Shown here: positions 25,141 through 32,000 of the stretch, in pieces
Layout of the letters: every line of letters begins with the position of its first letter
How positions within the stretch are numbered: position 1 is the first letter of the stretch
Source of the DNA: Ectothiorhodospira marina
GTDB taxonomy: Bacteria; Pseudomonadota; Gammaproteobacteria; Ectothiorhodospirales; Ectothiorhodospiraceae
Direction: 5' to 3'
Length of the DNA: 32,000 bases
NCBI RefSeq assembly: GCF_900109495.1
Contig: NZ_FOAA01000002.1
Location: forward strand, 220,956-252,955
Position numbers and translations under genes: made by a program
Notes under the pieces: model-generated
What the model was told of the DNA's origin: nothing
Database searches by the model: none
Seen by the model: only the letters and a program-made list of their open reading frames with translations

Positions 25141-25269
25141 GTCCTTGGCTCCAATCAGGGTCTGAAAAAACTGTTCCGGGATGATGCAATACTTTGGGGA
25201 TGGGTGGCAAGCTCTGAAGAATTGCAGGCATGCTATACAGAATCCGTCTTTCCTGGGGAAGGCCGATTC

Positions 25270-25289
25270 TGTCGAATATACTGTTATAT
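25270..25289 (+). other. Candidate attI core (GTTATAT crossover box)
   Basis: This is the only GTT-R-like box between intI (25140) and the first cassette ATG (25305): GTTATAT at 25283-25289. The attI arms are not defined. Confidence 0.3.
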
Positions 25290-25304
25290 TTTAGGAAGTA
25301 ATCG

Positions 25305-26171
25305 ATGAAGTACGAACAACGGATAGTGGCCTTTATTGATATATTGGGTTTTAAAGCACTTCTGAATGAGACCACTGACAAAAAAGGGAATGATGATGAG
25401 AAGGCAATTGATGCAGTGGTCTCAGCCTATGAGGCAATTAGAGATATTTGGGATTTAGATAAAAAATCCGATTATCTCGACACAAAATCATCAGACACAA
25501 AGAAAGTTTCCATTTTTTCTGACTGCCTAGTTGTATCTTTCGAGATAAACCAGCCTAGTGAAGTGTTTTTCACTTTGTTAGAAATAAAATGGCTGATAAT
25601 GAGACTTATCGCACGCAAGATATTGTGTAGAGGAGCGGTATCTCTTGGAAAATTTATCCACACTGACAATTACCTGTTTGGGCCAGCGTTAGTAGAGGCA
25701 TATACGCTAGAATCAAAGGCTGCCATGTATCCGCGAGTCATTTTAGATCACACTGTGATTGAAGCTGGAGCTAAAAACAGAGGCCTTGATCATAGCTTTA
25801 GTCAAGAGCATGAGTATGTGCAGTCACTACTTGAGCTGGACTCCGATGGCATGTACTACATAGACTACTTTTTCAAAGCCCAATCAGAACTGGATGACCC
25901 TGAATATGATTTCCCCGAATATATAGAAAATTTGGCTGAAATAATTCGTAAAGGGCTTATGGGGTCAAGCCACCATAGTAAGGCTGACATAAGAGTTAAG
26001 TATTCTTGGATGAGAGAGCGCTATAACAAGATGGTTGATATTGTCACAAACAAGAGTGCCATCCAAAGACTTAAACAATCTGGAGAGTACGATCTTTCTG
26101 AATTTTATAGTCAACTGAAGAAGATCAGCCCAAACAAATATAACAAGGCATTGCAGCGGACGAGCCGCTGA
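25305..26171 (+). CDS. Cassette 1: class III nucleotidyl-cyclase-like (palm domain) protein with unknown C-terminal half
   Basis: Three segments are collinear with the cyclase-homology domain. VAFIDILGF aligns with F-x-D-I-x-GF. IFSDCLVVSF aligns with I-G-D-x-x-M-x-x-F. CRGAVSLGKFIHTDNYLFGPALVEAYTLES aligns with R-I-G-I-H-x-G....LFGDTVNxAxRxES. An AGGAAG RBS lies 6 nt upstream. Confidence 0.55.
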   Translation: MKYEQRIVAFIDILGFKALLNETTDKKGNDDEKAIDAVVSAYEAIRDIWDLDKKSDYLDTKSSDTKKVSIFSDCLVVSFEINQPSEVFFTLLEIKWLIMRLIARKILCRGAVSLGKFIHTDNYLFGPALVEAYTLESKAAMYPRVILDHTVIEAGAKNRGLDHSFSQEHEYVQSLLELDSDGMYYIDYFFKAQSELDDPEYDFPEYIENLAEIIRKGLMGSSHHSKADIRVKYSWMRERYNKMVDIVTNKSAIQRLKQSGEYDLSEFYSQLKKISPNKYNKALQRTSR

Positions 26172-26185
26172 ATGCGGCGTTAATG
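26138..26185 (+). other. attC site 1 (very short, overlaps 3' end of cassette-1 CDS)
   Basis: R'' is ATATAAC at 26138-26144 and R' is GTTAATG at 26179-26185. GCATT-G-CAGCGG pairs with CCGCTGAATGC, leaving one extrahelical G. Confidence 0.6.
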
Positions 26186-26369
26186 GCCTTGGCCCTGTCA
26201 GTGGTATCGTTGGGTTAGAGTTTGATCGAATTTGAATCTATTTATGAAAAACTGGCAAACGTATCTTCGAAGAAAAATAATTTTTCGACCTCGTTTATAG
26301 CTTGAGATTGGTAATTCTCGGTCAAAATATTAAAGTTATATCGGAATAGTTTGGGTGATAGATAGGCGA

Positions 26370-28040
26370 ATGGAAAGAAATGATGAATCACATTTTAATA
26401 TCTATTTTTGCGGAAGCGCTATTGAATTTCCAGATGTGAAGCGCCCGGCGATAATTTTTTCGCCAGTGAATGATAGCTGGAATGATTTTAGATATAAGTG
26501 TAGCTACCGATATCTAATTTATTTTGGAGACGGACGAAGGGAAATAGAAGGCCGCGTATTTCTCGGATTTACGTCAGGTAACGAAAATATCGAAGATAGT
26601 GGTCAGCTATCTAATCAAGTCGAGGTAGTCGAGGCGAGTGAACTACCTGATTTTTTTACACTACAGGGAGGCATGAAGGATTATCGTTACTTTGTGAATG
26701 AGCATGGAACTGAAGATGCAAACCGCCTTCTCCTGGCTTTCAACGATTTGGTTGCCTGTCGGCGTTTTCCAAAACGAGCGAAACTCGTCGATGTTGCAGT
26801 AAAAACGGAAGTATTTAGTTTAGCTTTAATGAGGGACTCTGATCGTTTTTTTGCGTTTCACAATGCGGACACGATTCTTGATGGTTTGGAGGAAGAAAGC
26901 TTTTCTAGAATTTCGACTGAGTTTTCACTTTCATATGATCTTGCAGGGTTCCCAGAAAATCACAATTTATATTTGAATTTTGATACGAACAGCATTCTCC
27001 CGAAAAGAATCAGCGTGCTAATTGGGCGAAATGGCCTAGGGAAAAGCCAGGCTCTCCACACAATAGTAAGGTCTTTGGTTAAAGGAGATCTGCGTTTCTC
27101 TGATCGTGACCACGGTAGACCAATGGTGAGCCGCTTGCTTGCCATTGCTACGCCGGGAGAAACAGCCAATACTTTTCCTCCTGAGCGCCAAAATAAAAGA
27201 ATTAAGTATCGACGATTGATACTCAATAGGAGTGCGAGAGCCAAGGCCTCAAGGGGGTTCGGTGATCTCTGCGTTCAGCTTGCTCGGTCCGAGGAACTGA
27301 TTGGCAATAACGACCGTTGGAGACTATTTGAAGATAGCATTCAGCTTTTTTCTAATATTAAGAATGTCGTCATACCTTTGAGCAAAGATATTTCAGTTGC
27401 GGCTGATCATGTTTTGAGAGTCAACGGTAAACGTTATGTGCCGCTTTTGAAGCTAAACCATGGGGGAGAGCAGGCTAAATTAGAAGTACAAGGTGCTGTC
27501 GTAAGCAACGCTAACCCAATGATGTACATAGAGGATGATATTTTTCCTCTCAGCAGTGGACAACTTTCATTTATTAAGTTTATTGTCCAAGCTTGTTTGT
27601 TTGTTGAAAATGGAACCCTCGTTCTACTAGATGAACCAGAAACACACCTCCACCCAAACTTTATATCGGAGTTTGTCAGGATCCTTGATCGGTTATTAAA
27701 ATCTACTGGATCTGTTGCCGTCATTGCCACACACTCTGCCTATTTCGTTCGAGAAGTCCCTAGAAACCAAGTTCTGGTATTTAAAGGCGACGGCGATGGT
27801 CGGGTAAGCATTCAAAATCCTAGACTGAAGACATTTGGTGCAGATGTTGGGACGATCTCTTATTTCGTTTTTGAAGATGAAATTACTAATGGGTTAGTTG
27901 AAGATATACTAGATCGATTCCCACAAAATCCTGAAGCTAGAGATTCGTTATTAAAAGAACTAGAAGCAGAGTTGTCCGCTGACGTTGTTATGTACCTGCG
28001 CAGGAAGCTGAACATGGAGGAAAATAATGAAGAGAATTGA
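26370..28040 (+). CDS. Cassette 2 gene A: ABC/SMC-type (AAA_15/21-like) ATPase, PtuA-like, with unknown N-terminal domain
   Basis: Walker A is GRNGLGKS (27024-27047), the ABC signature is LSSGQ (27549-27563), Walker B is LVLLDE followed by PETHLHP (27618-27656), and the H-loop is IATHS. The first roughly 210 aa carry no motif I recognise. The alternative GTG start at 26355 would add 5 aa. Confidence 0.8.
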   Translation: MERNDESHFNIYFCGSAIEFPDVKRPAIIFSPVNDSWNDFRYKCSYRYLIYFGDGRREIEGRVFLGFTSGNENIEDSGQLSNQVEVVEASELPDFFTLQGGMKDYRYFVNEHGTEDANRLLLAFNDLVACRRFPKRAKLVDVAVKTEVFSLALMRDSDRFFAFHNADTILDGLEEESFSRISTEFSLSYDLAGFPENHNLYLNFDTNSILPKRISVLIGRNGLGKSQALHTIVRSLVKGDLRFSDRDHGRPMVSRLLAIATPGETANTFPPERQNKRIKYRRLILNRSARAKASRGFGDLCVQLARSEELIGNNDRWRLFEDSIQLFSNIKNVVIPLSKDISVAADHVLRVNGKRYVPLLKLNHGGEQAKLEVQGAVVSNANPMMYIEDDIFPLSSGQLSFIKFIVQACLFVENGTLVLLDEPETHLHPNFISEFVRILDRLLKSTGSVAVIATHSAYFVREVPRNQVLVFKGDGDGRVSIQNPRLKTFGADVGTISYFVFEDEITNGLVEDILDRFPQNPEARDSLLKELEAELSADVVMYLRRKLNMEENNEEN

Positions 28041-28881
28041 TCCTCCTGCTATTGATGACATTAAAGAGTTACAGCTTCTAGCTAATAACCACGGTCTCGG
28101 GAGTTATCCGGGCCTGATGAATGAATATATCCGATTTCGTAGTCAATACAATGTCTATAGTAAAAGCGGTGGAAACCCTTGGAATATAGCTCCATTGCCC
28201 ATTAGTGACGATTTAAAGAAGGCATTAAGAACTCATTATGGCTCTCCTCCGCAAGGTCGGCTGCAATTTCTCAAAAAGTATCGTCGAGGTTTATCGCCAA
28301 CAATTTGCCCAATGTGTGGGGGGTTCGGTAATGGTACTTTGGATCACTATCTTCCCAAAGAGGACTACCCAGAGTACTCATTTTTTTCTAAAAATCTTAT
28401 CCCAGCTTGTAATTGTAACTCGTTAAGAGGGACTACTGTTAAAGGGGTAGCATCTCCTGCAAGAGTAATTCATCCATATTACGATGATTTTCTGCAAGAC
28501 CGATTGTATCAAGCTGTGTTTCAAGGTGAGTTTTCTGCACCTAGTATTTCTATTGAAATTATTGATAAAAGCCATCCTGAATTTGATATTTTAAAATTTC
28601 ATCTCGACGAAGTAATTAAAAATGAAGCAACTCAAGGTTGGTTTGAGAAATATTGGAGCGATTTAAGTCAGCGTCCCCATGATAAGCTGGAGTTGGTTCT
28701 CCCATTGCCCGCGCAAGATGTGAGCGGAGCTGATTTGAAAGTTGCTCTTGAAAGATATAGAAATCATATGGATAAAGATCATGATACGCCAAATAATTGG
28801 CTTTCTATATTCTATACTGGATTGATTAAGGATCATAATCGCTTAGACAAGTTAGCAGCGGTCATAAACAGCAAGAGATGA
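28027..28881 (+). CDS. Cassette 2 gene B: HNH endonuclease, PtuB-like
   Basis: HNH core CPMCGG...LDHYLPKEDYPEY...NLIPACNCNSLRG at 28306-28425. The ATG overlaps the end of the ATPase gene by 14 nt. Confidence 0.8.
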   Translation: MKRIDPPAIDDIKELQLLANNHGLGSYPGLMNEYIRFRSQYNVYSKSGGNPWNIAPLPISDDLKKALRTHYGSPPQGRLQFLKKYRRGLSPTICPMCGGFGNGTLDHYLPKEDYPEYSFFSKNLIPACNCNSLRGTTVKGVASPARVIHPYYDDFLQDRLYQAVFQGEFSAPSISIEIIDKSHPEFDILKFHLDEVIKNEATQGWFEKYWSDLSQRPHDKLELVLPLPAQDVSGADLKVALERYRNHMDKDHDTPNNWLSIFYTGLIKDHNRLDKLAAVINSKR

Positions 28882-28927
28882 TATATGTGCGCCTAGCTTG
28901 GAATAACGAATTTCATGGCAACCATGC

Positions 28928-28985
28928 CATTAACAAGGAGCGTAAGGCGGACGGCTTTCAGCCGCCGCTTCGCTCAGCGTTGGAC
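28928..28985 (+). other. attC site 2
   Basis: R'' is CATTAAC at 28928-28934 and R' is GTTGGAC at 28979-28985. GAGCGTAAGGCGGACGGC pairs with GCCGCCGCTTCGCTC, with bulged bases. Confidence 0.7.
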
Positions 28986-29003: not shown

Positions 29004-29624
29004 GTGGGGCTCTCAGTTCCGTTGCAGGCAGACAACAAATCCGTCTCGCCAAATTATCGCGTAATCGACTGGCATGACGCCATGCGGTCCGACGATTGGG
29101 CTACGATGGTCGCCATTTTTAGAGATCGGCTGCATGGCAGATTCTTGGAGCCAATCGAACACATAGAGGCAGATAGGAGGATAGGGGGGTTCGCAGGTTT
29201 CTCCATAATGGCACTTGATTGCCTGCTTGTTGAGACTTTAAATCAGTTCTATCACGGTCTCGATGAGACACCTAAGGATCACCAAAGACAGTTTTGGAAG
29301 TTTTTTAGTGGTAGCGAGCATTTCAAGTCTAACTTCACAAGGAAGGTCTCGGACATTTTTTATAGTCATGTGCGCTGCGGATTACTGCACCAAGCCCAAA
29401 CAAAGAAAGGCACATTGATTAGGGCCGACCAAGATAGGATGATAAGCCCGGCTCCTGGGGGATTGGTCAATGGGATAATCGTTGATCGCGTCCGTTTCCA
29501 TGATGCATTAAAGCAGGAAATAGCGACATACATCCGAACGCTGGAATCGGGAGAGGAAGGTGGTGCGGACCTCCGCAATAACTTCATCACAAAAATGCAG
29601 TACATCTGTGGAGGGCAGGCCTGA
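29004..29624 (+). CDS. Cassette 3: hypothetical protein with R-x4-H (HEPN-like) motif
   Basis: 206-aa ORF with a GTG start 6 nt after GAGG. It is predicted helical and carries RCGLLH at 29373-29390. I do not recognise the family. Confidence 0.5.
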   Translation: MGLSVPLQADNKSVSPNYRVIDWHDAMRSDDWATMVAIFRDRLHGRFLEPIEHIEADRRIGGFAGFSIMALDCLLVETLNQFYHGLDETPKDHQRQFWKFFSGSEHFKSNFTRKVSDIFYSHVRCGLLHQAQTKKGTLIRADQDRMISPAPGGLVNGIIVDRVRFHDALKQEIATYIRTLESGEEGGADLRNNFITKMQYICGGQA

Positions 29625-29729: not shown

Positions 29730-30140
29730 ATGGAAATCAAGTGTATTGCGGGTTTTGCGTCGATTACTAAAGATCCTGCGGCAAGTGCATCACTGTATCA
29801 GGGCGCCCTAGGTTTGCCGCTGGAGAAAATGGATGATTATCGTTTCATGGATAAATTTCCCGGAGCGAATCATTTCGGAGTATGGCCTCTAGCTATGGCA
29901 GCTCAGTCTTGTTTTGGTCAGGAGGAATGGCCTAACCATATTCCTGAGCCGACCGCTACGATTGAATTTGAGTTGGGGGATGCGGCTGCTGTGGAAGCGG
30001 CAGTAGAAGAAATGAAGGAAAAGGGGCAAGAGTTCGTTCATGAAGCCCGGACTGAACCTTGGGGGCAGACAGTCGCAAGGTTTATGAGCCCCGAGGGAGT
30101 GTTGGTTGGTCTCAGTTATGCGCCATGGCTTCATGAATAA
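29730..30140 (+). CDS. Cassette 4: VOC-family (glyoxalase/bleomycin-resistance/dioxygenase fold) protein
   Basis: 136 aa with a layout typical of small VOC proteins: N-terminal beta-alpha-beta-beta-beta (FASITKDPAASASLYQGALGLPLE) and a C-terminal EPWGQTVARFMSPEG. Confidence 0.7.
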   Translation: MEIKCIAGFASITKDPAASASLYQGALGLPLEKMDDYRFMDKFPGANHFGVWPLAMAAQSCFGQEEWPNHIPEPTATIEFELGDAAAVEAAVEEMKEKGQEFVHEARTEPWGQTVARFMSPEGVLVGLSYAPWLHE

Positions 30141-30271: not shown

Positions 30272-30655
30272 TTGTGTCTGTGTGGCACAGTGAGTTTTCA
30301 GGTAAAAGGTGATTTCGATAGCTTCTACCTGTGCCATTGTCTGCATTGCCAAAAAGACACAGGTTCGGCTCATGCGGCAAATCTATTCTCGCATTCCGCT
30401 AAATTGGTCTGGCAATCGGGTTCAGATGCTGTAGCTTCCTTTACGCTTCCTGGCACTCGTCATAACAAAAGCTTTTGCAAGTTGTGTGGTTCAGCATTGC
30501 CAAATACACAGGTCGCGGGTTTGCTTGTTGTTCCGGCAGGGTGTTTGGACTCTCAAATAACGATGTTGCCTACGGCGCATATCTTCTCATCCAGCAAAGC
30601 TGTTTGGGATGAGCGGTTGGAGGAGGTGTCAAAGTTCGAGGGTCTACCAACGTGA
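30272..30655 (+). CDS. Cassette 5: GFA-family (glutathione-dependent formaldehyde-activating / CENP-V-like) zinc protein
   Basis: Contains CLCGTVSF...CHCLHCQKDTGSAH...CKLCGS, a typical GFA Cys pattern. It has a TTG start. An upstream ATG at 30252 lies in a different frame (see findings). Confidence 0.75.
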   Translation: MCLCGTVSFQVKGDFDSFYLCHCLHCQKDTGSAHAANLFSHSAKLVWQSGSDAVASFTLPGTRHNKSFCKLCGSALPNTQVAGLLVVPAGCLDSQITMLPTAHIFSSSKAVWDERLEEVSKFEGLPT

Positions 30656-30664
30656 ACCGCCACC

Positions 30665-30749
30665 ACATAACTAGTGCATTAAATTCGTTCCGGCCCGATG
30701 GGCCTCCACCGGACGCCCTAGTCGGGCGCCGTTTATGCAGGCGTTAAAT
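30665..30749 (+). other. attC site 5
   Basis: R'' is ACATAAC at 30665-30671 and R' is GTTAAAT at 30743-30749. TGCAT-T-AAA pairs with TTTATGCA. It overlaps the yoeB stop codon. Confidence 0.6.
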
Positions 30750-31003
30750 CAGTAGTGATACCGGAGCTGGGCGATAAGCAAAGCGTCATCCGTGACTTTG
30801 TAAACTATTCGGTGTTCTTCGTTGATCCGGCGGGACCAGTACCCGGCGAGGCTGTGTTTTAGGGGCTCTGGTTTGCCAACACCTTCGAACGGTTCTCGCT
30901 TGGTCTCTTTGATCAGCTTGTTGATTCGGTTAAGAATCTTTTTGTCGGTTTTCTGCCAGTACAGATAGTCTTCCCAGGCGTTCTCGGAGAAGATGAGTTT
31001 CAT
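30749..31003 (-). CDS. yoeB: Cassette 6: YoeB/Txe-family mRNA interferase toxin
   Basis: 84 aa reading MKLIFSENAWEDYLYWQKTDKK...GKPEPLKHSLAGYWSRRINEEHRIVY...RYHY, a canonical YoeB sequence. Confidence 0.92.
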   Translation of the reverse strand: MKLIFSENAWEDYLYWQKTDKKILNRINKLIKETKREPFEGVGKPEPLKHSLAGYWSRRINEEHRIVYKVTDDALLIAQLRYHY

Positions 31004-31251
31004 TCAAGAAGTTCCTTTTCTTGACCACCGCCTTGCTCCAGCTCGGCAACGGATTCCAGCAAACGCCGTGCGTTTTTTGGTGCGCGCAGAAGGTATGCAG
31101 TTTCTTGCAGCGCCTCGTAGTCCTCGAGGGAGATCATTACCACTGACTGCGACTTGCTCCGGGTGATGATCACAGGGGAATGGTCTTCACAGACCTGCTC
31201 CATGGTTTTTGCTAGATTGGTTCTAGCGGCTGTGTAGCTAATGGCATCCAT
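31000..31251 (-). CDS. yefM: Cassette 6: YefM/Phd-family antitoxin
   Basis: 83 aa reading MDAISYTAARTNLAKTMEQVCEDHSPVIITR...MISLEDYEALQETAYLLRAPKNARRLLES. The stop and the yoeB start overlap (4 nt). I chose the start at the internal ATG of ORF 31000-31341. Confidence 0.9.
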   Translation of the reverse strand: MDAISYTAARTNLAKTMEQVCEDHSPVIITRSKSQSVVMISLEDYEALQETAYLLRAPKNARRLLESVAELEQGGGQEKELLE

Positions 31252-31305
31252 AGGGTTGCTCCTGTACAGGATATTGGTCATGTTCAGGATACCGTACGCC
31301 AAAGG

Positions 31306-31383
31306 ATTTAACAATCGGCTGCACAGCGACCGATTTTCCACCGCTTCGCGGCTCCAAACCGGCGCGTGATCCGGGCGTTAGCA
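31306..31383 (+). other. attC site 6
   Basis: R'' is ATTTAAC at 31306-31312 and R' is GTTAGCA at 31377-31383. The central CCGCTTCGCGGC palindrome resembles the interior of attC 4. Confidence 0.65.
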
Positions 31384-31420: not shown

Positions 31421-31693
31421 ATGAAGCAAATAAACTGGAATGCCGAAAAGAACCAGCAGCTGATGAGCGAACGCGGAGTCTCCTTCGAAGACGTTCTGTT
31501 TGCTCTCCAGTCTGGTGGTTTGCTTGATGATGGACCTCATTCCAACAGGGAGAAGTATCCAAGCCAGCGTATATTCGTGGTTCGGATAGATGATTATGCC
31601 TGGCTGGTGCCGTACGTTGAAAATGATAGGGAGTTCTTTCTCAAGACGATTGTTCCCAGTCGCAAGGCCACCAAGAAATTTTTAGGAGGATAA
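31421..31693 (+). CDS. brnT: Cassette 7: BrnT-family (DUF497) ribonuclease toxin
   Basis: 90 aa. INWNAEKNQQLMSERGVSFEDV fits the W-x-x-x-K-x-x-x-N-x-x-x-(H/R)-G-V-S-F-E pattern of BrnT toxins, and the C-terminus has SRKATKK. Confidence 0.75.
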   Translation: MKQINWNAEKNQQLMSERGVSFEDVLFALQSGGLLDDGPHSNREKYPSQRIFVVRIDDYAWLVPYVENDREFFLKTIVPSRKATKKFLGG

Positions 31694-31694
31694 C

Positions 31695-32000
31695 ATGGCG
31701 AAAACCAAATTGGATCCTGAAGAGCAAGAATTGCTTGAGGCATACGAATCCGGAAAGTTTGAGTCGGACTTGGATGCTGGTCGTCGCGAGTACCTAGCCA
31801 AGATGGCCGAAGAAACATTCAAGAAAGACAAAAGGATCAATATACGTATCTCTAGCCGGGATCTGGAGGCACTTCAGCGTCGGGCTCTGGAGGAAGGGCT
31901 TCCTTATCAGTCTCTCGTGTCCAGTGTCCTGCATAAGTATGTCTCTGGTGGCCTGAAGGACATTTCTGCTAACAAGTCAGGCCAGCGGACACGCTATTAA
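31695..32000 (+). CDS. brnA: Cassette 7: BrnA/CopG-type antitoxin
   Basis: 101 aa with the ribbon-helix-helix-like segment KRINIRISSRDLEALQRRALEEGLPYQSLVSSVLHKYV. It starts 2 nt after the brnT stop. The stop codon occupies the last 3 nt of the window. Confidence 0.75.
   Translation: MAKTKLDPEEQELLEAYESGKFESDLDAGRREYLAKMAEETFKKDKRINIRISSRDLEALQRRALEEGLPYQSLVSSVLHKYVSGGLKDISANKSGQRTRY
31967..32000 (+). other. attC site 7 (5' half only, truncated by window end)
   Basis: TGCTAAC-AAG-TCAGGCCAGCGG has the same R''-spacer-L'' layout (TAAC AAG) as attC 1 and 2. The partner half lies outside the window. Confidence 0.4.

Follow-up and report, generated by a model that had tools for sequence, protein, structure and literature searches.

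Defense systems built around a nucleotide cyclase, such as Pycsar and CBASS (cyclic oligonucleotide-based antiphage signaling system), normally pair the cyclase with an effector. In a 32,000-nucleotide stretch of the Ectothiorhodospira marina genome (contig NZ_FOAA01000002.1, positions 220,956 to 252,955; the whole stretch is called here the window), the first cassette of an integron carries a single gene for a 288-amino acid (aa) protein, which a first-pass annotation had described as a stand-alone cyclase-homology protein with no effector gene in the same cassette. What does a cyclase-like protein do when it is encoded alone? The analysis presented here confirmed that observation and supported its interpretation, with four corrections. 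That no effector accompanies the gene is most readily accounted for by a toxic effector role of the protein itself, and not by a Pycsar- or CBASS-like system without its effector. The protein is probably a single-protein toxic nucleotidyltransferase, not a signaling cyclase, and one homologous toxin, PanT of a Burkholderia phage, has already been described.

The only open reading frame (ORF) of the cassette (25305-26171, forward strand) encodes the 288-aa product exactly as it had been quoted, with the codons of D12 and D73 at 25338-25340 and 25521-25523, respectively. No match to this protein was found in Pfam, NCBIfam, and PADLOC (for PF00211, none at E ≤ 1), nothing was found in the Protein Data Bank (PDB) by sequence searches with either the single sequence or a profile, and the PHROGs database yielded two families only, both of unknown function. 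The exact protein was absent from the record look-up and no Escherichia coli homolog was found at the DNA level. The fold was revealed by an AlphaFold model built on 39 homologs (predicted local distance difference test, pLDDT, 81.4; predicted template modeling score, pTM, 0.81), which has the topology β1-α-α-β2-β3-α-β4-β5-α4-β6. All of the top 50 PDB matches obtained with Foldseek were class III adenylyl/guanylyl cyclase-type domains (E-values 3e-5 to 2e-3, alignments of 160-200 columns), with a template modeling score of up to 0.66 when normalized to the minimal cyclase Ma1120. The closest solved folds are bacterial adenylyl cyclases (e.g., Ma1120, Rv1264, and CyaC), and the matches include 6yii, a class III cyclase-like protein with ATP binding only. 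Within the viral folds of BFVD, only weak cyclase/GGDEF matches were found. A GGDEF diguanylate cyclase was considered and rejected, as the motif position reads F-S-D-C-L and no GGDEF structure is among the top 50 PDB matches; PF00990 is also missing from the 25 Pfam families recorded for 63 members of the family.

In the model, D12 lies at the end of β1, D73 in the β2-β3 turn, and R109-G110 at the opening of β4, while G126...E136-S137 is located on helix α4. The same residues (D12, D73, R109-G110, and G126...E136-S137) were placed in the cyclase register by hhalign against five cyclase domains from PDB entries, although the score was weak (P 0.005-0.02) and is not primary evidence, and the register recurred in weak hmmsearch matches of 98 out of 271 family members. 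Moreover, one distant family member, P0261, as the only one, exceeds the gathering threshold of PF00211 (Guanylate_cyc; 23.7 vs. 21.9 bits) and matches the family profile with an E-value of 5.8e-47, which constitutes a transitive sequence link between the two, and PF00211 is the sole Pfam family with an E-value below 0.01 in two of the 63 members. The three signature segments that had been aligned by eye with class III cyclases are thus more than chance matches: structure and profile comparison place all of them in the cyclase register and on equivalent elements of the palm fold. The third segment, however, does not contain the catalytic Asn/Arg pair, the positions of which are occupied by V130 and T134.

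This bears on the possibility that the protein is an ordinary regulatory adenylyl/guanylyl cyclase of cyclic AMP or cyclic GMP signaling, which came onto a cassette by chance. Such a role would agree with the bacterial adenylyl cyclases being its nearest solved folds, but the protein fails PF00211, has neither the Lys/Asp or Glu/Cys specificity pair nor the Asn/Arg pair, and possesses no sensory or membrane domain. Furthermore, its gene is foreign DNA, judging from a GC content of about 40% in a host with 65-67%, and its homolog PanT is a toxin. We therefore consider an ordinary regulatory cyclase extremely unlikely.

A census of 258 family members showed which parts of the active site are under constraint. 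D12 (99%), D73 (100%), and R109 (100%) are practically invariant, and positions conserved in 93-100% of members also include Y3, R6, L14, G15, F16, F71, S72, and S78 in the N-terminal part, G110, G115, H119, G126, P127, A132, E136, P143, and R144 in the middle, and D179, D181, K232, W235, and N241 in the later part. The transition-state Asn/Arg of cyclases, located on α4 (VNxAxR), is replaced across most of the family, with position 130 being V in 69%, I in 17%, and N in 9% of members and position 134 being variable; a few members (P0210 and P0261) retain the Asn. The base-specifying position four residues before D73 is S/T (S69 in the window protein), not Lys or Glu, and no equivalent of the second base-specifying residue was identified in the window protein. 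Of the two Asp and the transition-state residues, the placement of which had been proposed for checking, only the two Asp are in place. Judging from the alignments, the family has kept the two-metal core and the phosphate-binding Arg, and the remaining catalytic apparatus is family-specific; with the canonical Asn/Arg replaced, strict cyclase activity is not implied.

The cyclase fold extends to approximately residue 190 and includes the strand 145-147 and the D179/D181 hairpin; therefore the C-terminal part with no recognizable motif, previously estimated at about 130 aa, amounts to about 100 aa. Modeled separately, residues ~191-288 were all helical (pLDDT 81.7), and a fold search of this bundle against the PDB revealed no structural relative (best E-value 2.8).

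In one metagenomic representative, P0128 (475 aa), the entire family unit is duplicated in tandem. The first of the two copies has jointly lost G15, K17, S72, D73, R109, K232, and N241, and retains D12, H119, E136, R144, D179, D181, and W235, so that the tandem copies mirror the active/degenerate pairing of C1/C2 pseudo-heterodimeric cyclases. At the level of sequence, this pattern suggests a dimeric function and an active-site role of K232, which belongs to the helical module.

The same evidence bears on a second alternative, i.e., a pseudo-cyclase without catalytic activity, which would bind a nucleotide or some component of a phage and act as sensor, sponge, or structural inhibitor; should it benefit phages, it could be an anti-defense protein. 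The absence of the canonical transition-state Asn/Arg and of the specificity residues would fit such a protein, as would the ATP-only binding of 6yii and the presence of relatives in phage families (phrog_23933). On the other hand, invariance of both Asp, R109, and some 20 further polar residues in a family of thousands is typical of an enzyme, exactly these residues were lost in one P0128 copy and kept in the other, and an antitoxin accompanies the phage copy, as would be expected for a toxin. In our opinion, a pseudo-cyclase is decidedly unlikely.

The phage copy is of particular importance, as it is the tested member of the family. A tblastn search of phage records matched only P2-like Burkholderia prophages, and a phage family, phrog_23933, was detected with an E-value of 5.5e-39. 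The homolog of phi52237, gp8 (YP_293707.1), is located in the prophage accessory region directly behind gp9, a DUF4065/SocA-type protein, and gp9-gp8 are the PanA-PanT(Bur. phage) pair of Kurata et al. (2022; PMC8832971). PanT is a full-length homolog of the window protein and, like it, is carried by a mobile element. BLASTP gave 28% identity over the palm domain (E-value 5e-17), and the hidden Markov model of the family matched PanT with an E-value of 6e-39 (profile positions 2-238 of 266). The residues shared by both proteins are D12, S72-D73, R109-G110, H119, G126-P127, E136, P143-R144, D181, K232, and N241. They differ in that PanT has an N-terminal extension of about 45 residues, A in place of D179, and Q in place of W235, whereas the window protein keeps both residues and lacks the extension. 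PanT is encoded in a prophage accessory operon next to its antitoxin PanA, while the gene in the window forms an integron cassette, probably a promoterless one, with no antitoxin adjacent to it.

According to Kurata et al. (2022; PMC8832971), PanT(Bur. phage) resembles adenylate/guanylate cyclases (HHpred probability of 97%) and was termed a "putative nucleotide cyclase". In E. coli the protein proved toxic; the DUF4065 (Panacea) antitoxin PanA neutralizes it, and the two form a complex. Transcription is inhibited most, followed by translation and replication; the ATP level is unchanged and that of GTP slightly decreased, and RelA-dependent guanosine tetraphosphate (ppGpp) is induced, the toxicity remaining in a relA mutant. 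The cyclase likeness is thus already published for a homologous toxin and the fold is not new for the family. As the toxicity was attributed to a putative nucleotide cyclase, the only homolog with a defined activity is compatible with the cyclase-type reading and does not point to an unrelated function.

The physiology of PanT brings in a further alternative, namely a nucleotidyltransferase directed at the ends of tRNA or other RNA (a Thg1- or MenT-like outcome), which would block aminoacylation and thereby engage RelA; in fact, this is a variant of the toxin explanation with another substrate. Thg1 proteins consist of a palm domain and a C-terminal helical module, and the window protein, with about 290 aa, has a similar layout. 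The RelA-dependent ppGpp, normally a sign of uncharged tRNA, which arises without ATP depletion, and the loss of cyclase-specific transition-state residues also speak for this possibility. Nevertheless, no Thg1 or polymerase structure is among the top 50 PDB matches, there is no Pfam match to Thg1, and PanT inhibits transcription more than translation, so we regard an RNA-directed enzyme as unlikely. Membership in the Thg1 family as such was rejected, as neither structural nor profile support for it was obtained.

The genetic setting was analyzed at the same level of detail (Table 1). The integron is real, and the ORF 25305-26171 is its attI-proximal cassette. This cassette is inserted at attI next to a divergent integron integrase gene, intI (TIGR02249), is bounded by an attC hairpin, and has moved between arrays and positions. 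The integrase carries Pfam matches to Phage_integrase, two stretches of Phage_int_SAM_4, and Phage_int_SAM_1 at residues 16-67; an N-terminal extension of about 145 aa with an extra SAM-like domain makes it longer than usual (compare the 324-aa integrase of Salinisphaera, L011; L numbers denote homologous loci). The recombination junction is G25283|T25284, inside GTTATAT, and only 21 nucleotides separate it from the ATG, which leaves cassette 1 no space for its own promoter. The Shine-Dalgarno-like AGGAAG noted before lies inside the cassette, at 25293-25298. By a simple scan, no sigma70-like site was detected on the plus strand of 25141..25283, and the integron promoter Pc was not located.

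The attC sites were located by a structure-based scan with a background control. That of cassette 1 has R'' ATATAAC (26138-26144) and R' GTTAATG (26179-26185, one mismatch to GTTRRRY), with TAAC pairing with GTTA, and its L''/L' stem, GCATTGCAGCGG / CCGCTGAATGC (also written GCATT(G)CAGCGG / CCGCTGAATGC), forms the expected imperfect hairpin. The final approximately 11 codons of the ORF overlap this attC. In many homologs the short attC (42-56 nucleotides from TAAC to GTTA) encodes a conserved C-terminal tail, "...YNKAL(Q/H)RTSR". A conserved attC follows the homologous gene in at least 10 loci. The site of the window cassette also ends the gene in five other genera; it is near-identical in L001, L013, L016, L019, and L021, and nearly unchanged copies lie behind homologs in Halomonas, Shewanella, Porticoccus, and a metagenome-assembled genome (MAG) labeled Gracilibacteria; longer forms occur in Vibrio, Ancylomarina, Chitinophagales, and a deltaproteobacterium.

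The most informative relative is the copy of a Cycloclasticus MAG (L001), whose protein is 98% and DNA 96.6% identical. Nucleotide identity is confined to positions 25283-26182 of the window, with none beyond, and thus ends precisely at the cassette junctions. The limits proposed earlier for the cassette, 25283-26185, are exact. Upstream of the common GTTATATTTTAGGAAG, the window has attI and L001 has the end of another cassette's attC (...GCGGGCGTTAT), i.e., the L001 copy is located mid-array, behind another attC, and that of the window is attI-proximal. The Salinisphaera homolog is likewise the first cassette, adjoining an intact integron integrase, and that of Enterobacter adjoins an intI remnant. 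The GC content falls from 65-67% on the host side to about 58% in intI and then sharply to about 40% at the attI junction. Over the first two cassettes (to about 29000) it remains at 39-43%, and it reaches about 48-54% in the later ones.

No conserved partner gene was found in about 50 loci, in agreement with the previous description of a stand-alone gene. Homologs with at least 55% identity lack an operonic partner (what look like downstream genes are the next cassettes), no flank is conserved between genera, and a PanA-like sequence is present neither in the window nor in 40 genome loci, but only in the phage locus. These findings make it a genuine module of one gene. A hidden small antitoxin, encoded as an ORF or RNA, was considered and rejected, as the flanks are not conserved.

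A survey of homolog contexts placed the relatives in other integrons and, repeatedly, among defense genes. The neighbors are PD-Lambda-1 in Enterobacter (L008-L010), HsdM and a PIN_12 protein (flanking L050 and L051), RhuM/PDC-S05 and HsdS (L037), a PD-T4-6-like kinase (L043), an HNH effector (L023), Abi_C (L035), and Mrr-CTD12 (L034).

Distant members (31-48% identity) are embedded in type I restriction-modification operons via overlapping stop/start codons, either in the hsdM/PIN_12 gap (L050, 4472-7778; L051, 1394-4672) or in the RhuM-like/hsdS gap (L037, 5082-7940). This type I slot is the classical place of Abi effectors such as PrrC.

Defense-rich neighborhoods and a cyclase fold with both metal-binding Asp would also be expected of a signal-making cyclase, as in Pycsar or CBASS, whose cyclic nucleotide would switch on an effector from another genomic locus. 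PADLOC models include PycC, and the protein matches no PADLOC model. Moreover, the gene has no conserved partner and moves between phyla alone, as a cassette, and PanT is toxic in E. coli without a cognate effector. We find a signaling cyclase very unlikely, and all four alternatives are less well supported than a PanT-type toxin.

Taken together, the evidence tips slightly toward the cassette 1 protein being a self-contained toxic enzyme from the family exemplified by PanT(Bur. phage), acting as a single-gene abortive-infection defense. Its N-terminal ~190 residues are predicted to form a class III cyclase-type palm domain, which likely performs two-metal nucleotidyl transfer on a nucleoside triphosphate, because D12, D73, and R109 are retained. 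The active site would have been rebuilt with H119, E136, R144, and D179/D181, probably joined by K232 and N241 from the helical bundle, and the protein is probably dimeric, like cyclases. When active, it would arrest growth, chiefly by loss of transcription and translation, as in PanT. Because the window subfamily has no antitoxin, we infer that the protein is kept inactive and is switched on by phage infection. The gene would have been captured as a promoterless cassette and, in position 1, would be driven by the integron promoter.

Several points weigh against this explanation. A constitutive toxin in the most strongly expressed slot of an integron would be lethal, so autoinhibition, a trigger, or other control must be assumed. 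The identity to PanT is only 28%, with two differences in the C-terminal half (A for D179 and Q for W235), and the toxicity was measured for the phage homolog, so that it may apply to the window subfamily by analogy. The chemistry may be other than cyclization, given the missing transition-state Asn/Arg and base-specifying residues, and Kurata et al. (PMC8832971) reported no new nucleotide species with PanT. The argument for a dimer and for K232 comes from a single sequence, P0128. In the literature we found no report of anti-phage activity for the family, which is also absent from PADLOC 2023, nor any subsequent work on how the cyclase-like PanT acts or any named defense system of this family.

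An exhaustive profile search (representatives being 50% identity clusters) revealed 9,658 family representatives at E ≤ 0.001, of which 5,147 also reached E ≤ 1e-10. They are mostly 255-290 aa long with full-length profile matches, and the named examples are all "hypothetical protein". The 40 reference-genome loci come from Proteobacteria (Gamma-, Alpha-, and Betaproteobacteria) as well as from Bacteroidota, Ignavibacteria, Elusimicrobiota, Verrucomicrobiota, Bdellovibrionales, and candidate phyla. Identity across phyla reaches 72-74%, which implies horizontal transfer.

Copies 72-73% identical to the window protein are found in L016 (Candidatus Gracilibacteria MAG, 407-1288) and L015 (Paracaedibacteraceae MAG), with the L016 copy carrying the same attC as the window cassette. 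These contigs were binned to very distant lineages, one of which is thought to use an alternative genetic code; this is a striking case of horizontal transfer, or else the contigs, which are short, were mis-binned.

This very large family has no Pfam, NCBIfam, or PADLOC (2023 version) model and one tested member, PanT. The window gene is an antitoxin-free, cassette-borne variant of this barely characterized toxin family, and it is in these respects that it is new. With one gene, 897 bp, and no partner, the cassette is the smallest possible version and therefore offers a clean handle on the reaction of a cyclase-fold toxin and on its silencing without an antitoxin. Cassette 1 also illustrates the transport of such genes across phyla by integrons. 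If it is a true anti-phage effector, a widespread single-gene system would be added to the defense catalog, together with a second, non-signaling use of the cyclase fold in immunity. More tentatively, and with considerable doubt, the protein may stand as prototype for a class of immune effectors that is very large and works with one protein only; in it, a cyclase-type palm domain completed by a private helical module would, upon phage infection, make a nucleotide that is toxic by itself or modify an RNA, with no signal relay, separate effector, or antitoxin, and would spread across phyla as a minimal cassette.

Table 1. Features of the integron in the window, with the evidence for each (coordinates are window positions).
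Feature	Coordinates	Strand	Evidence
intI integron integrase, 461 aa	23755..25140	-	TIGR02249, E 2.9e-138, residues 150-460
intI-cassette intergenic region containing attI	25141..25283	+	Cassette identity with L001 begins at 25283
Shine-Dalgarno-like AGGAAG inside cassette 1	25293..25298	+	6 nt before ATG; kept in L001
Class III cyclase-like palm domain, residues 1-190	25305..25874	+	AlphaFold topology, Foldseek, residue census
Family-specific helical bundle, residues 191-288 and stop codon	25875..26171	+	Separate model, conservation
attC of cassette 1, 48 nt, unusually short	26138..26185	+	Hairpin fold, -17.9 kcal/mol
Cassette 2, Septu-like two-gene defense pair	26355..28881	+	PADLOC profiles
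AAA ATPase of cassette 2	26355-28040	+	PDC-M01A, E 2.6e-61; PtuA, E 5.5e-45
HNH-like partner gene of cassette 2	28027-28881	+	PDC-M01B, E 1e-39
Cassette 3, 206-aa protein	29004-29624	+	attC R' sites at 28979 and 29700
Glyoxalase cassette	29730-30140		
GFA cassette	30272-30655		
YoeB/YefM toxin-antitoxin cassette, inverted	30749-31341	-	
BrnT/CopG-like toxin-antitoxin cassette	31421-32000	+	

Within the rest of the array, cassette 2 (26180-28985, with the R' of its attC, GTTGGAC, at 28979) has a leader of about 175 nucleotides with two promoter-like sites (26252-26281 and 26302-26331). The 206-aa protein of cassette 3 has no significant match in Pfam, NCBIfam, PADLOC, and PHROGs.

Compared with known systems, the window protein has the same palm fold and topology as the class III cyclase domain (PF00211; Ma1120, Rv1264, CyaC, and soluble guanylate cyclase), with the metal-binding Asp pair, the Arg-x-Gly of β4, and the "G...ES" of α4 equivalently placed. 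In contrast to these cyclases, it is devoid of the transition-state Asn/Arg, the base-specifying Lys/Asp positions are not conserved, and the family adds the invariant H119, E136, R144, D179/D181, K232, W235, and N241, as well as a helical bundle of about 100 aa without a known relative. With Pycsar (PycC and a transmembrane or TIR effector) it shares a class III-type cyclase fold in a defense context, but it has no effector gene, no PADLOC match at E ≤ 1, and no conserved neighbor, and its homolog is itself toxic; the logic of Pycsar is that of sensor, signal, and effector, whereas here it would be that of an effector only. The published integron defense cassettes, i.e., the bacteriophage resistance integron cassettes (BRiC) of mobile integrons and those of sedentary chromosomal integrons, differ from the window gene in that its role in defense is one that we infer; the word "cyclase" is absent from both papers (bioRxiv 10.1101/2024.07.02.601719 and 10.1101/2024.07.02.601686), and the family is not mentioned there. 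Like those cassettes, the one described here is compact, bounded by attC, and probably promoterless, and its array also holds a Septu-like system and toxin-antitoxin cassettes.

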